The notes: generated by a model not told the origin, from the sequence alone. Shown: positions 29,285 to 54,194, counted from the first letter of the stretch. The stretch: DNA of 64,000 nucleotides from Dictyostelium discoideum (GCA_000004695.1 CM000151.3:4192001-4256000); one strand, 5' to 3'. A program made the numbers and translations.

Positions 29285-30274
29285 ATGAAGACTCATAAAA
29301 AAAAGAAGTCATTGGGAGGATTATTTTCACATTCTTCATCTAGTCCAAATTTAAAAAGTTTTTTAACTGAAGAAGTAATACATGAACAACAACAACAACA
29401 ACAACAACATAATAATAATAATAATAATAATAATAATCATCAAAGACAACCATCCACAACATCAACATCATCATATATTGATAGTGCATCATCATCAATT
29501 GAAGAAACTAGTGGTTATTTAAGTAAAACTTCAAGTTCATCATCATTACCATCATCACCATTACATAATCAAAATCAAAATCAAAATGGTAATATTCAAT
29601 TAAATAGTAGTAGTGGATCTTTAAATAATAATGAACAACAACAACAACAACAATCTATATCACAAACATCATCACCAAATACATCATCACCAATAATGGG
29701 TAAAAAGAAACCATCAAGATTAGCACAAGCATTCAAGAGGGTTAAAAATAATGGTAATAATAAATTAAAGAAAGAGATTGAAGAATTAACTAATAAAACT
29801 GGATTAAATCAACAATATACTCATTCAAATTTACCATTCAATGTTGTAGAATCTGATATTGACAATGGTAGTAGTGGTGGTACAACTTCATCCACTGGCA
29901 ATATAATTAGTCATTCTAAAAGTCCATCATCATCATCATCGTCATCGTCATCGAAAAAACATCAAAGAAAATCAAGATTTATTGAACCAATTTCACAATC
30001 AACTGAAGATTATACAGATATACCAAGAATCATTAAAATGTCTGTAGAATATCTATTTGAAAAATGTTTATTAGTACCTGGTATCTTTAGAGAAAGTGCA
30101 AATGCAATGGAATTACAAAGATTATCACAACTATTCGAAAAAGGTGGTGATATAGATTTATCTGAATATACTGATCCTCATTGTATTGGTGGTTTATTAA
30201 AATTATATTTTAGAGAAAAACCAATTCCAATATTTCCATATGATTTACATAAAAGAATTTATTCTGGTAAGTTT

Positions 30275-30309
<35 letters not shown>

Positions 30310-30362
30310 CAAAAAAATTTAATTTTATTAATTATATTTTTTATTTATTTATTTATTTAATT

Positions 30363-34214: not shown

Positions 34215-34889
34215 TTGTTTTTAAAATTAATTTTAAATAATTTTTTTTTTACTTTTTATTTTTTTTTAGTTTTTACTTTTACATCAAATTCATTATTTTC
34301 ATTATTAATTATAAATATTAGTCAAGGTTGGGGATTAATATCAGATTTTGGTAAACGTTTTGCAATTATTTTTAATTGTGCAATATTTTTTTCAACTGAA
34401 ATATTAGGTTTAAGTGCTTATTTAGTTGAATCAAATAGTCAATTTTATGGTGGTGAATATAGAAATCCATTTAAATCAAATGTTGGTTATGTTTTAATAG
34501 CAATTCAAGGTTTAACAATTTTTTATTTTATTTTTTCAAACAAAATCTTTTCAAATTTGATTTCAACAGATCAATATCAACAATCATTTTTGGTTAAATT
34601 TAAAATAATTTTTTCAATTTGGATAATTTCAATTCCAATTTCAGAAATAATTAGTATTTTCATTGTTGACAATAATTTTAGATTCAGTTTATTTAGTATT
34701 ATTAATGATTCATTTAATTTAATTTTCTATTTATTAATAATTTATATTTATCATCCATGTAAAAGTAATATTTTAGTAAAAAGATTAAATAGTTATTATG
34801 ATGATGGTGATGAATTATCAATTAATCAAAATCAATCACAACAAAAAAGTATTGACGAAATTAATCTTGAAAATTTATATAACAAGTAA
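34215..34889 (+). CDS. C-terminal part of the same candidate 7-TM protein (five further TM helices + acidic tail); true exon probably starts near the TTTTTTTAG acceptor at 34270
   Basis: Same frame (mod 3) as 33429..34163. Five hydrophobic segments. The first 18 codons are AT-rich and intron-like, with a polypyrimidine tract and AG at 34268-69. Confidence 0.45.
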   Translation: MFLKLILNNFFFTFYFFLVFTFTSNSLFSLLIINISQGWGLISDFGKRFAIIFNCAIFFSTEILGLSAYLVESNSQFYGGEYRNPFKSNVGYVLIAIQGLTIFYFIFSNKIFSNLISTDQYQQSFLVKFKIIFSIWIISIPISEIISIFIVDNNFRFSLFSIINDSFNLIFYLLIIYIYHPCKSNILVKRLNSYYDDGDELSINQNQSQQKSIDEINLENLYNK

Positions 34890-35110: not shown

Positions 35111-38916
<3,806 letters not shown>

Positions 38917-41487: not shown

Positions 41488-42891
41488 TTATTTTTCAATT
41501 CTAAATTTAATTGAATGATCAGATTGTTGAGATGGAATTAATTTAAATGGATGTGATAATTCTTCAGGACCTAATTTTTTACCTTCTTTATAATCAGAGA
41601 CTTCTATACAAGATGAGGTGATTTTACCAGTAAAGGTAGAGATGGCATCATCATAATTTGAGCCCCATGTGATTGTACCTGTGATATTTTCGCCATCACG
41701 TTTCACTACATCCAATTTAAAGTTTTCAATTGAGGTACTTGTACCCTTCCATTGAGAATCTGGTTGTATATTTGTAACGGGTGGGGATTTTGTTAATTTA
41801 AGTTTAAAAGTTGAATCACCAACTTTTCCTATGATTTGGTCACCATAGATGGTGGATTTATAGTCGTTTGGAACCTCTACATCATCTTCACCACTTATGA
41901 TTTCATATTCTTGGAAATTGAATTCACCATTGGTTGCCACTACTTTACCCTTATATTTTGTTTTTGCATAACCTAAATTAATCCAAGTGATTACACCCGA
42001 AACTTCTTCACCATCACCTACAAAATCATCAACTGTCATAACCAATGGATAATGATCATCATCACTTGAACAAACACCTGCCCATTCACTACCTTTAATT
42101 AAAAATCCTGAATTTATTACTAAATTATTTGTTGTACTTGTTGAATTATTTTTTGATTTTGATTTTGGTGATGTTGCTGTAGCTGTACCTGTATTTGTAG
42201 TAGTAGTAGTAGCTGTAGTAGCTGTAGTAGTATTTGTTGGTATTGCAACAACTGGTGCAGTTTCTATTAAAAATAATAATAATAATAATTAGTAATTTAA
42301 TCTTTAAATTTTATATATATATATTTTTTTTTTATTACATACTTTGACCAACTAAGAAAGCAGTATGATCAACTAATTTTTTAGATTTAATACAAGAATC
42401 AATCCAAGTTGATTCAACACAAATAATTTTTAAACCTTCTGCTTTTGAAATGATATCATTAAATGTTTTATAATCATCTTTTAGATCAGATGGTTTCAAG
42501 ATGAGATAATCAGTTTTCTTTGTCATTGTATCAACTGATTTACCACCACAAATCTTAATTATACCTTTAATTTCATTTGTTTTAGTCTTTTGACTTGTAT
42601 TACTATAAAATGCAAATTGAAGATCATCAAAAAATGATGTTGTTGTATTTGCTTTAGTTCTTTTAACTGCACGACGCTAAATAAATAAAAAAAAAAAAAA
42701 AAAAAAAAACAATCAATATTAAAAAACTAATAATAATAATAATAATAATAAAAATACAAATAATAAAAATACCTTCATAGCATCATCAAATCTTCTTTGA
42801 ATACCAACTAAATCTGGATCATTGATTGAATTTGTAAAATTTGAAAGAATCTATTATTTGAATTTATAATTATTATTATTAGTATGGGAAA

Positions 42892-42954
<63 letters not shown>

Positions 42955-43149
42955 AGTAAATTAAATACATACATCAGCAATTGGCATAATTTCAATATAT
43001 CTTTCATTGTCAACTTTAATTTTTTTATTTCCAATTGTTGCCAATGATGAATTGAATGACTTTTCAAATCCATCTAATAATGATGAATCATAAGGTTTCC
43101 AAGCATCACCATCTAAATAATACCAAATATAAGCATTTGCATGACTCAT
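41488..43149 (-). CDS. WWE domain + BRCT domain protein with an unrecognised, internally duplicated C-terminal domain (~454 aa), 4 exons
   Basis: Exons 43149..42973 (MSHANAYIWYYLDGDAWKPYDSSLLDGFEKSF...ERYIEIMPIAD is WWE; GTATGT donor), 42850..42773, 42676..42343 (BRCT: KGIIKICGGKSVDTMTKKTDYLILKPSDLKDDYKTFNDIISKAEGLKIICVESTWIDSCIKSKKLVD) and 42263..41488. The C-terminus contains two ITW-centred repeats (SGVITWINLGYAKTKYKGKVVATNGEFNFQEY and TGTITWGSNYDDAISTFTGKITSSCIEVSDY). No PARP HGS/Y/E catalytic triad is visible. Confidence 0.6.
42885..42955. repeat. (AAAT)n microsatellite in intron 1 of the WWE-BRCT gene
   Basis: Direct read. Confidence 0.9.
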
Positions 43150-43320
43150 TTTCTAATTTTTTTTTATTCTTTATTTTTTATTTAATATACAAATGACTAT
43201 TGTTAAAATTAATAAGAAAAAAAAAAAAACAATTAAAAAAAAAAAAAAAAAAAAGTTTGAAATTAAAAAAAAAAAAAAAAAAAAATTGTTTTGATATTTT
43301 CAAAAAAAAATATTTTTTCT

Positions 43321-43364
<44 letters not shown>

Positions 43365-43383
43365 ATCATATTCCCAAATCACC

Positions 43384-43427
<44 letters not shown>

Positions 43428-43468
43428 AACAACTTTTAGATTGATTTTATTATTTTTTTTATAAAGAT

Positions 43469-43857
43469 TTATTTTCTTGATAATTTTTTAGAGATTTTAC
43501 TTAATTTTGCTTTTGCAAGCATTCCCAAGAAACGAGCTCTTTCACGATAATGCACGATTGACATAATAATAATAGCAATGATAGCACAAGCAATCACTAT
43601 ACCAACTATTGCACCAACAGATAATGAATTAACTTTATTATCATTTGGAAAACAATCATTAACATCAATTAACACTGAAAATGATGTACTTGATACTCTT
43701 GCATCGACACATGGTGGTGATGATGATAACTCCTTTTCATTACCTTTTGAATCATATGTTGCAAATTTAATATTACCAAAACTATTACTACTTTTACTAT
43801 CAAAATTAACTAATTTCAATATTGTTTTTTCATTTGTTGATGATGATGATGATTCTG

Positions 43858-43906
<49 letters not shown>

Positions 43907-45927
43907 TAATAAATTTTCATTTATTTTAATTATTACAATACCATTAATATCAGCTAATTTTGAAATATTTATTGTTGAAAAGGAATAAAGTGAATCAATA
44001 ACAATTATAATTTTTGATGATGAGTCATTTGATTGTATGAAATTACCAATTATATTGAAATTGTTAACAGAGAAACTTGACCCGAATTCACCACTATTTT
44101 GAATGATTGTACTATTAATATTACCATTACCTTTAATTGATCCACCATTTAATTGAATTGAATTATCACTTGATAATGTACCACCATTTAAATTTAATTC
44201 ACTACCATTTTCATTCCTAAATTCGTAAATATAAATAGTATGATTATTAATATTTAATTGAGTTAAACTATCATTACCACCACCACTACCACTACCACTA
44301 CCACTACCATTGCCATTACCATCACCATTATTAATAAATGAAATATTAATCTCAACATTATCATTATCAATATTGAATATACCATCATTTTTTAGTGTAA
44401 TATTATTACTTTTAATATTTGTATCATTTGTGTAATAAATACCACCAGATGATAAATTATATATACCATTTTGATTAATTTCAAAAGTTGAATTATTATT
44501 TAAATATAGATTACCTGATGTTTTAACAATACCATTGTCTAAAATAAATTTTGAATTTTCAAGATTAATGTAAGAATTTGGGTGAATTATTAAATTACCT
44601 TTATTAATTATGAATATAGAATCATTTAAATTAATGTATGATGAATTTTGTAGAATTGAATTACCACCTTCAATATAAACAGTCGTAAAATTAGTTTCAA
44701 ATTCTCCATTAATTATTAAATCATCATAAGAGTATATAATGGAATTTTGAATTCTCAATGACGATTTATTATTAACAGTTAATGAACCATGTGATTTAAA
44801 TACTGAATCAATAATTACTACAACTATATCACTATTAAATATTGTAGATTTATGTGAATTAAAATCACAAGAATTAAATTTAATTTCACCATTAAATTCT
44901 GCACTACCCCATGAATTGAAAATACTCTTTTCTATTGTAAATTCTGAATTTACTGATGAATAAAAGTCATTTCCTATATTAATAATAGATTCCATACCGG
45001 TTATACCAAATTTAGAATTACCATTAATTTTTAAATCACCATAAATTGACAATTCTGATTTATCATTTACAAAAAGTTTAGAAATACCATTTAATAATAA
45101 ATCACCATTAATTGTCATTTCATTATTATCAAATAATAAAAATAGAGAATCATCATTTAAATGTAAACTTCCAGAAATAAATAAATCTAAATTATTCATA
45201 GTATTAAAAATAGATTGATTCATTAACATTGCATCACCATTTATTTCAATATTTGAATTATTTAAATAAATTTGACTTTTATCTTTCATTATTAGCCCCC
45301 CATTTAAATTAATTTTTGAATTATTTTCAACATTAATAGAACCATTATTATTAATTTCCAATTTATTACAATTTAAAAATAAATTTGATTTTTGGTCTTT
45401 TTTTAAAAAAAAAATTAATTAGTTAATTATATTTATATATTTATTTTTTATATATCAATAAAATTTAACATACAAATATTTAAAAAACCTCCAATAATAA
45501 AATTTTTGGTTGAAATTGTTGTGTTTTTAAAAGTTGGGTTAAATATACTATTACTATTAATTTCAAAGTAATATTTTACATATATTGAATTATTAACATT
45601 TAATATTGCACCATTTTCCATAATGAAACTTCCTCTATTTATATCCATTGAATCATATACACTATATTGACCATACAAATAAAATGACCCATTATTAATT
45701 GTAAAATATTCTGAAGAACATATTTCATCATAATCTATTAATAAATTACCACCATTTGATAATAATAATGAGTCATCTTTAGTTGGAACTTTTTCAGGAT
45801 ACCAATTAGTTTTATTTAAAAATGATTGTTTATTATTTCTATCACCAACATATACAAGTCTATCACAATTTGATAATTTAATTATTAATATAATTAAAAA
45901 AATAATAAATAAAAATATTTTTTTCAT
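43469..45927 (-). CDS. Large type-I cell-surface protein (~793 aa): signal peptide, Asn/Ile/Ser-rich beta-helix-like repeat ectodomain, Gly-Ser linker, single C-terminal TM and short basic tail; 2 exons
   Basis: Exon 1 45927..45474 reads MKKIFLFIIFLIILIIKLSNC... with a GTATGT donor (phase 1). Intron 45473..45397. Exon 2 45396..43469 has repetitive N.S..I.N / LNG / INGD strings, a (GNGS) linker, and ...VGAIVGIVIACAIIAIIIMSIVHYRERARF...KKLSRK*. Confidence 0.55.
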
Positions 45928-53075: not shown

Positions 53076-53899
53076 TTAATTATTTTTTTCACCAAAATAA
53101 AATATTGATATTCCTTTTGATTGATCAAGTTCTAATAAATTTGCATTGAATTTTTGAGCAATCCAATCAATAGTTTTTGGTCTAAAAAAACAAATATGAG
53201 TGAAATCTCTTGGATAGTGCCAATTTTCAAACATTTCATCATTTAATAATAATTGAGTCATAATTAATAAATATCCACCATCTTTTGAAATTAAACCACC
53301 ATTAATAATTTTATTTAAATCTTTAATTGGATATTTAAAATGTTCAATTGCTTCAGTACATGTTATAAATTTAAATGATTTAATTTCTTCTTCTTTTTGT
53401 TGTTGTTCTTCTTCTTTTTCTTTTTCTTCTTGTTGTTTTTGATTTGTTTTTATTTTTAAATTATTTTCAACTTTTTCAACCATTTCATGTTTCATAAAAT
53501 ATGGATCATAATTTTCAACATTAAGATTTGCAATTTCTTTAAACATTAATGATAATGTTGGACCTGGACCACAACCATAATCTAATCCAATAAATTCTTT
53601 TTTTTTTTCTTCTTTTTTATCATTATTATTATTATTATTATCATCATTTCCAAATTGATTCAACTCTTTTTCTAATAATAGATTTAATTTTTCAACACAT
53701 GGTTTTAAAAACGATTTATATTTTTCATCAGTTGGTGAATTCTTATGTAATTCATAACGATCTTTTTCTTTATTATTTTCAACATGAAAATGTGGATGCA
53801 TATAAACTAATCCACATTCACCACACCCATAATATAATTTATTTAATCTTTTTGAAAATATTTTAATTATTTTTTCATTTTCATTATTTTCATTAATGT

Positions 53900-53933
<34 letters not shown>

Positions 53934-54194
53934 GGTGGCGGTATTATCTTCATTAATTGGGGTTGTGATCGCTGCTGTTGTTGTTGTAGTGTTGGTGGTA
54001 TTATCTGTAGTATTTTTATCTTTTTGTTCATTTATAGTATTATTGGTTTTATCATATAAACTATTTTCACATAATGGGCATGGAACCATTTCTAAATTTA
54101 AATCATCAACATTTAATGTTTTGTTTTTTTTCTTTGTATTAAAACCACTACCATCTTTGTTTTTTTTGAAATAAAATTTTCTTTTTTCTGACAT
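53076..54194 (-). CDS. SAM-dependent methyltransferase with N-terminal CxxC...CxxC zinc-ribbon; single exon
   Basis: Zinc-binding pairs PCPLCENSLY...YGCGECGLVYMHPHF. Motif I is IGLDYGCGPGPTLSL, and a post-I acidic residue and FITCTEAIEHF (motif II/III) follow. An Asn/Thr/Glu-rich insert is present. Confidence 0.65.

Follow-up and report, generated by a model that had tools for sequence, protein, structure and literature searches.

A WWE-BRCT protein of Dictyostelium discoideum with tandem β-barrels of an uncatalogued family, and its candidate role as a reader of ADP-ribose

A 64,000-nucleotide stretch of the Dictyostelium discoideum genome (GCA_000004695.1, CM000151.3:4192001-4256000; termed the window in what follows, with positions counted from its first letter) carries on its minus strand, at 43149-41488, a four-exon gene for the protein Q76NX0, in which a WWE domain is followed by a BRCT domain and two tandem, mutually homologous β-barrels. 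The analysis described here establishes the gene model together with the WWE fold, the BRCT domain and the tandem barrels, as well as the lack of a catalytic or E3 ligase domain and the conservation of this layout across Amoebozoa. The barrel, with a unit of ~105 residues, is an uncatalogued yet widespread family. With a probability of roughly 0.55, Q76NX0 is a non-catalytic reader-adaptor of poly(ADP-ribose) (PAR) or ADP-ribose, in which the WWE domain would read the modification, the BRCT domain would add a further contact, and barrel 1 would bind a ligand or partner. The gene was already annotated, under the name “BRCT domain-containing protein”, and its WWE and BRCT domains are commonplace; the novelty lies in the barrel family and in the conserved joining of WWE, BRCT and two barrels. 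The searchable literature contained no description of Q76NX0, of a non-PARP WWE-BRCT family, or of the barrel.

The coding sequence of 1365 nt, which specifies 454 residues, comprises exon 1 (43149-42973), exon 2 (42850-42773), exon 3 (42676-42343) and exon 4 (42263-41488, including the stop codon at 41490-41488), all on the minus strand. Intron 1 (42972-42851, 122 nt) and intron 2 (42772-42677, 96 nt) interrupt the WWE domain, and intron 3 (42342-42264, 79 nt, phase 1) lies in the linker that precedes the barrels; all three possess GT..AG borders. The conceptual protein matches that of D. discoideum AX4 (XP_644060.2, EAL70239.2, UniProt Q76NX0) with 100% identity from end to end, so that the coordinates, the four exons and the 454 residues reported in an earlier note, which had been made from the window sequence, are all exact. 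The N- and C-terminal ends of Q76NX0 coincide with those of its orthologues in the alignment, and retention of intron 1 leads to a stop five codons inside the intron (open reading frame (ORF) 42961-43149). Exons 1-3 each contribute to the WWE fold, the last strand of which (residues 86-93) shares an exon with the BRCT domain. Moreover, WWE, BRCT and barrels are found within a single ORF in Trinity transcripts of Phalansterium, Paradermamoeba, Pyxidicula, Thecamoeba and Clastostelium. The WWE and BRCT domains therefore belong to one transcript, which disposes of the possibility, raised in the same note, that their exons come from different ones.

The G+C content of the window is ~20%, and the poly-N/T tracts and short AT-rich introns are dictyostelid-like. 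Most of intron 1 is occupied by a near-perfect (AAAT)20 microsatellite (42889-42971, 95% matches), the length of which could be polymorphic between strains. Among other D. discoideum isolates, cluster members range from 447 to 459 residues; this variation in coding length is probably located in the linker.

The WWE domain (residues ~7-93; 42653..43131, minus strand, exons 1-3) is recognized from fold, profile and homologue evidence. Pfam alone is insufficient for the call, since PF02825 scores 15.5 bits on the D. discoideum sequence against a gathering cut-off of 21.1 and aligns only residues 7-52 with profile positions 1-46. Homologues exceed the cut-off, with 40.9 bits over the full profile for P0014, 28.6 bits for P0027 and 26.6 bits for P0016. 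A profile of nine N-termini retrieves the WWE structures of DTX1 (E=6.8e-4), RNF146 and Deltex from the PDB, and hhalign to the WWE domain of RNF146 (Iduna) yields 89.7% probability (E=1.9e-6). In BLASTP, P0014, an insert-free homologue, shares 30% identity with the RNF146 WWE domain over its full length (E=5e-13). The AlphaFold2 (AF2) model of residues 1-95 has a predicted local distance difference test score (pLDDT) of 86 and a predicted template modelling score (pTM) of 0.77. As in the six-stranded WWE half-barrel with its one capping helix, the order of elements is β-β-helix-β-β-(extra helix)-β-β, with predicted strands at 7-13, 16-19, 42-45, 50-54, 73-79 and 86-93, a helix at 22-33 between the second and third strands, and the extra helix at 57-62, followed by a loop, between the fourth and fifth. 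The top Foldseek matches of this model in the PDB are all WWE domains (RNF146, HUWE1, TRIP12, ZAP, Deltex and PARP14); the first six have probabilities of 0.99-1.0, that of RNF146 being 1.0. These results mark the N-terminal module as genuinely WWE, RNF146-like and extended by an extra helix. A six-frame hidden Markov model (HMM) scan of the window with the WWE profile gave no match, as is expected for a domain divided among three exons.

In RNF146, the adenine of iso-ADP-ribose is stacked on Tyr107 and read by Gln153, while the phosphates are held by Arg110, Arg163 and Lys175 (PMC10877565). All human E3 WWE domains keep the Gln and an aromatic residue, which is Trp or, in RNF146, Tyr (PMC11269756). 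In the alignment of nine N-termini, the name-giving residues W9, W17 and E29 are invariant, as are Q77 and R87, which align with Q153 and R163 of RNF146. Position 11, aligned with Y107 of RNF146, is Trp in most orthologues and Tyr in D. discoideum, and the adenine-binding Gln, the stacking Tyr and the R163 equivalent are thereby common to RNF146 and Q76NX0. The motif ‘ENM.Q.RR....RRR.IKR’ likewise has its counterpart in ‘(ENM)LQRRYDD.MKRRAVKR’. The RNF146-type WWE domain of Q76NX0 would bind the iso-ADP-ribose or ADP-ribose unit of PAR, with Q77 of the predicted site forming a hydrogen bond with adenine, the aromatic residue at position 11 stacked on that base, and R87 in contact with a phosphate. 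Unlike RNF146, Q76NX0 has no RING domain and is not an E3 ligase, and its WWE domain runs straight into the BRCT domain.

The BRCT domain (residues ~98-193; 42353..42640, minus strand, exon 3) is detected by Pfam and by the PDB profile search. PF00533 matches residues 98-181 with E=6.7e-10 (39.5 bits, cut-off 21.3) and PF16589 (BRCT_2) matches with E=1.6e-9 (38.4 bits, cut-off 27.3), the two together covering residues 98-192. The WWE-BRCT fusion described in the earlier note is thus upheld, with the BRCT domain above its Pfam cut-off and the WWE domain supported by homologues, hhalign and the AF2 fold. When a profile of 16 family BRCT sequences was compared with the PDB, PARP4 was closest (E=1.5e-11), followed by Rad4/TopBP1, XRCC1, PARP1, DNA ligase IV and microcephalin; the best matches, those of PARP4, PARP1, XRCC1 and Rad4/TopBP1, span E values of 1.5e-11 to 1e-8. 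By these profile matches the domain is placed with the single-BRCT, ADP-ribosylation and strand-break-repair group. Pfam finds only one BRCT domain in Q76NX0, in place of the tandem pair of phosphopeptide-binding BRCTs of the BRCA1/MDC1 type, and Q76NX0 has no catalytic PARP domain. The family alignment has no conserved Ser/Thr-Gly after strand 1 (β1-α1 loop) and no fixed Lys column (the α2 Lys of such pockets), which makes a canonical phosphopeptide pocket doubtful; the domain is probably not a canonical phosphopeptide reader. A BRCT domain of the PARP4/PARP1/XRCC1 type may instead provide a protein-protein (BRCT-BRCT) contact or a contact with PAR or DNA.

The C-terminal region had been described as ~230 residues built from two ITW-containing, β-rich repeats. 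The duplication, the ITW motifs and the all-β character stand, but the region consists of a linker of ~50 residues followed by two barrels of ~100 residues each. The linker (residues ~197-250; 42103..42343, minus strand, spanning intron 3) is a low-complexity segment rich in Thr, Ala, Ser and Asn; it is unconserved, varying in length and sequence among orthologues, and gives only spurious low-complexity matches. Barrel 1 (residues 251-358; 41779..42102, minus strand) has eight antiparallel strands and the full family signature. Barrel 2 (residues 359-454; 41491..41778, minus strand) is its homologue and is partly degenerate in dictyostelids. Profile-to-profile comparison of the two with hhalign gives 98.2% probability (E=5.9e-14), and ITW is present in both halves (I288-T289-W290 and I389-T390-W391). 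In the AF2 model of residues 246-454, two successive eight-stranded antiparallel barrels are formed with a pLDDT of 80, and of about 90 in barrel 1. The barrels are predicted to be all-β and up-and-down, and GID4, Gid10 and the avidins are the nearest solved folds in Foldseek.

This predicted fold bears directly on the proposal that Q76NX0 is a degenerate PARP paralogue, its C-terminal region being a decayed ADP-ribosyltransferase (ART) or macro domain. WWE and BRCT domains are both found in PARPs, 15 ART genes are present in Dictyostelium (PMC8529158, PMC2964712), and the BRCT domain is closest in sequence to that of PARP4. The proposal, which the earlier note had offered as one of two options, is nevertheless rejected at the level of fold: two all-β eight-stranded barrels are predicted, with GID4, Gid10 and avidins nearest, and not an ART or macro domain. 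The ART fold is not among the structural matches shown for the barrels, and structure prediction of the C-terminal region, suggested earlier as a way to look for a PARP-like or macro-like fold, returned the barrels without a catalytic-domain match. Pfam searches at E<=10 with the whole protein and with the isolated C-terminus gave no PARP, macro, RING, HECT, U-box or DTC match, in agreement with the earlier reading that PARP catalytic, RING and HECT domains are absent. A PARP origin of the C-terminal region is, accordingly, hardly credible.

Conservation within the barrel was counted over 193 barrel copies and is given in D. discoideum numbering, the offset of which was checked. G342 (99%), G286 (98%), E315 (97%), W290 and G302 (96% each), Y331 (93%), G259 (88%), T298 and P328 (85% each) and E317 (81%) are the most prominent positions of a signature that can be written W-x-G ... 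G-x3-W-P-T-L ... T-K-F-x-G ... F-x-E-Y-E ... P-x2-Y ... G. Barrel 1 of Q76NX0 has every signature residue (W257, G259, G286, W290, T298, G302, E315, E317, P328, Y331 and G342). From the periodicity of hydrophobicity, W257, W290, T298, E315, E317, Y331 and four glycines occupy the strand register of the hydrophobic core, which suggests an internal or open-ended ligand cavity in barrel 1. Such a putative cavity would be lined by the six non-glycine residues, and the four near-invariant glycines would give room. Its acidic character disfavours direct binding of phosphate-rich PAR or DNA. Being both acidic and aromatic, it would suit an amino group (that of a peptide terminus, for example), a basic group or side chain, or a ribose or other sugar better than bare phosphate.

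The signature is kept in both barrels of most two-barrel proteins. In the dictyostelid WWE-BRCT orthologues, signature comparison shows T298, E315 and E317 of barrel 1 replaced in barrel 2 by S400, D415 and K417, and the second half of barrel 2 (the P..Y segment) is not alignable, with a partial signature WGGWSGDK. Barrel 1 is the likely functional site in D. discoideum because barrel 2 has lost part of the signature; the latter is probably a structural partner. In the six-frame HMM scan, the barrel profile covers only the first half of barrel 2 (window 41760-41590), and no barrel copy was found in the window beyond the Q76NX0 gene.

The closest folds, GID4 and the avidins, are ligand-binding barrels with the cavity at one end, which supports a ligand site in the barrel. 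In GID4, one opening of the barrel leads to a deep pocket, where Glu237 and Tyr258 hold the amino group of the ligand (PMC9574856). A PAR-dependent substrate receptor is conceivable on this model, in which GID4/Gid10-like barrels grip a protein N-terminus or short degron through the buried Glu/Tyr pair and PAR-marked or barrel-bound clients are delivered to an E3 ligase or another effector; we consider this rather improbable. No sequence relation to the GID/CTLH E3 receptors GID4, Gid10 and Vid24 is detectable: the GID4/Vid24 model PF09783 has no match at E<=10 in Q76NX0 and none in 115 family members, and the PDB sequence-profile search with the barrel at E<=10 retrieved no GID4 chain. Weak matches of the barrel to ribosomal L22 and protein G (E 0.18-0.6) are probably due to chance. 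The Q76NX0 barrels are without the three-helix insert of GID4, and they are tandem and fused to WWE and BRCT rather than docked on a GID scaffold. GID4 scores only slightly better in fold than avidins and generic eight-strand barrels, at a sequence identity of ~10%, so that the predicted barrel and GID4 appear to share a fold class, with homology unproven. Equally tentative is the broader proposal that the tandem barrels are an undescribed, ancient ligand-binding domain of Amoebozoa and bacteria, similar to the GID4 N-degron receptor, that couples PAR reading to a protein terminus or small amine ligand.

Eight-stranded barrels also accommodate small molecules; avidins bind biotin and the Cap15 barrel binds cyclic nucleotides. 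The barrel of Q76NX0 might on these grounds be a sensor of a metabolite, sugar or nucleotide, possibly one derived from ADP-ribose. Such a role is improbable in our estimate, as no ligand is identifiable, no avidin-type motif or profile match is present, and the fold similarity is generic. Compared with the eight-stranded barrels of avidin and streptavidin, those of the amoebae have no sequence similarity and no biotin-binding motif and are intracellular parts of multidomain proteins.

A two-barrel profile searched against 1.84 billion cluster representatives recovered 320 of them with E<=1e-3, of which 148 reach E<=1e-10. The C-terminal domain, called unrecognised in the earlier note, is indeed absent from Pfam, NCBIfam and PDB sequence models, but it is part of a family with no fewer than 320 cluster representatives, bacteria included. 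In 115 longer family matches the barrel is covered by no Pfam model; it has no NCBIfam match in ten proteins, bacterial ones included, and no PDB sequence-profile match. Among the 115 proteins, Pfam finds BRCT in 37, WWE in 17, PB1 in 7, PH in 3 and a Top1-type zinc ribbon in 3, with single cases of RhoGEF, SAM, Cbl_N2, protein kinase, SH3_3, Peptidase_M23, Laminin_G_3 and Ig-like domains. The named eukaryotic members are all Amoebozoa (several dictyostelid genera, Phalansterium, Paradermamoeba, Pyxidicula, Thecamoeba, Clastostelium, Mastigella and Synstelium), and many other matches are metagenomic proteins. A single-sequence search with the two-barrel region of Paradermamoeba gave 5 matches. 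The full WWE-BRCT-two-barrel layout is common to many amoebozoan members. No paper on this combination was found, and in this the earlier impression that it is foreign to characterised families is correct; yet the gene is annotated and the same layout recurs across Amoebozoa, so that it is no one-off.

Cavenderia fasciculata possesses, beside a WWE-bearing form, the paralogue DFA_02692 (P0029), with BRCT and two barrels and no WWE domain. The same WWE-less architecture is found in P0017, P0019, P0023 and P0026. Because a WWE-less paralogue exists in at least one dictyostelid, BRCT and two barrels look like the conserved core and WWE like an add-on. Other members place the barrel in different company. 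A RhoGEF-PH cassette is joined to tandem barrels in Mastigella eilhardi (P0032) and the order BRCT-two-barrel-PH is seen in Synstelium polycarpum (P0013); together with the seven PB1 partners, these suggest that the barrel serves cytoplasmic signalling contexts too.

In bacteria, a member from a Gallionellaceae metagenome-assembled genome (P0102) is encoded among the housekeeping genes for EarP, LepA, signal peptidase, RNase III, Era and RecO. Another (P0085; metagenome contig Ga0498925_0017933, 1097-8793) combines a kinase-like domain, SH3_3 and one barrel, and its neighbours in the cluster are a VWA protein, a PP2C phosphatase and another kinase, which has faint ankyrin matches. Such a locus is typical of Ser/Thr signalling in bacteria, and the barrel may be its sensor module. 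The gene neighbourhoods of these two bacterial loci gave no usable functional clue. Two metagenomic proteins of 1342-1373 residues (P0153 and P0154) are large and of secreted or surface type, with Ig-like, Laminin_G_3 and Kre9/KNH-like domains and one well-conserved barrel each; one of the two has a weak match to a haloarchaeal surface domain. Such proteins suggest that the barrel works extracellularly in prokaryotes too.

The reader-adaptor model draws these parts together. The WWE and BRCT domains would place Q76NX0 where the Dictyostelium PARPs (Adprt1a, Adprt1b and Adprt2) deposit PAR, barrel 1 would hold its ligand, and the whole protein would bridge PAR marks to that barrel ligand or partner. 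The idea of a PAR-reader adaptor, the other option of the earlier note, is the best-supported explanation: the RNF146-like WWE domain keeps the iso-ADP-ribose contacts and the BRCT domain is near those of PARP4, XRCC1 and PARP1. It is further supported by the recruitment of repair factors through PAR-reader domains in Dictyostelium (PMC5087659, PMC8529158).

An opposing view is that Q76NX0 does not read ADP-ribose at all, the WWE domain being a protein-protein module or a binder of an ATP-like adenine nucleotide and the BRCT domain a generic scaffold unrelated to PARylation. In its favour are the sub-threshold Pfam score of the D. discoideum WWE domain, its lack of counterparts to R110, W114 and K175 of RNF146, and the helix-loop insert of ~17 residues (about 55-72, with N63, F64 and D70 invariant) between strands 4 and 5, which occurs in most family members and is missing in P0014-like ones. 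Human WWE domains, moreover, differ widely in ligand affinity and bind ADP and ATP as well (PMC11269756), and the Cavenderia paralogue P0029 indicates that the BRCT-barrel unit functions without a WWE domain. On the other hand, conservation within the module is strongest at the adenine-binding Gln, the stacking aromatic residue and the Arg equivalent to R163, the WWE sequence is closest to that of RNF146, the prototypical iso-ADP-ribose binder, and the BRCT domain has its affinities in the PARP/XRCC1 group. We regard a function apart from ADP-ribose as unlikely, if somewhat less so than the receptor and sensor alternatives.

Several points weigh against the reader-adaptor model as a whole. The counterparts of RNF146 R110, W114 and K175 are not conserved in the family; with the D. 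discoideum WWE domain below the Pfam cut-off, its affinity may be low and its preference may be for PAR, ADP-ribose or ATP. The insert, which lies between the Y51 strand and the Q77 strand, could reshape the WWE site. The AF2 model of the barrels was built on only 10 sequences, with a pTM of 0.56, and the cavity is derived from strand periodicity and not from coordinates. Nuclear localisation is assumed in the model. The PB1, PH and RhoGEF partners and the secreted bacterial proteins imply that the barrel ligand need not concern ADP-ribose or DNA repair, and the literature, searched by accession and by domain combination, contained no study on Q76NX0 or its orthologues.

The role of ADP-ribosylation in DNA repair has an established model in Dictyostelium, whose PBZ and macrodomain readers came from similar domain mining. 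Those readers, such as APL, are likewise non-catalytic and pair an ADP-ribose-binding module with interaction domains of the repair type; FHA, PBZ and BRCT figure in the domain key given for the macrodomain proteins of Dictyostelium (PMC5087659), and ADP-ribose readers are recruited through PARP activity (PMC8529158). Q76NX0 differs in that its module is a WWE domain and its barrel has no counterpart in those proteins. No characterised WWE-type reader of Dictyostelium was found in the literature searched, and the Q76NX0 gene is a ready candidate for one. Since the barrel travels with BRCT, WWE, PB1, PH, RhoGEF and kinase modules and extends to bacteria, identification of its ligand would annotate several hundred proteins. 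If that ligand were a peptide terminus, GID4-like recognition would be extended beyond the GID/CTLH ligase; were a GID4-like coupling true, it would constitute a new PAR-dependent substrate-receptor pathway in genome maintenance.

Among other features of the window, Pfam identifies a RhoGAP ORF (29285-30322, plus strand), an ORF with a GPR180/TMEM145 transmembrane domain (34215-34889, plus strand), a 686-residue protein with a C-terminal C3HC4 RING finger (35111-37171, minus strand) and a Methyltransf_23 protein (53076-54194, minus strand). The gene for the RING protein is 4.3 kb away from that for Q76NX0, and no sign of a functional link was seen. The whole window (1-64000) contains no tRNA genes according to ARAGORN and no Rfam family at the gathering threshold.

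Between the ATG of the Q76NX0 gene and the stop of the next minus-strand ORF are ~320 bp (43150-43468) made up almost entirely of homopolymer runs, among them A69 (43217-43285, 85% matches), T37 (43327-43363) and T40 (43387-43426). With so small a gap to the neighbouring ORF, the entire promoter of the gene would be confined to 43150-43468. The neighbour (43469-45361, minus strand) encodes 630 residues, rich in Asn, Ser and Ile, with many short ‘N-x-S-x-I/L-x-L-N-G’-like repeats, and has no Pfam match at E<=1e-3. The sequence also includes GSGSGS, a poly-N tract and, at its C-terminal end, a hydrophobic segment that precedes a basic tail, and the product looks like a repeat-rich, possibly β-helical, membrane-anchored surface protein.

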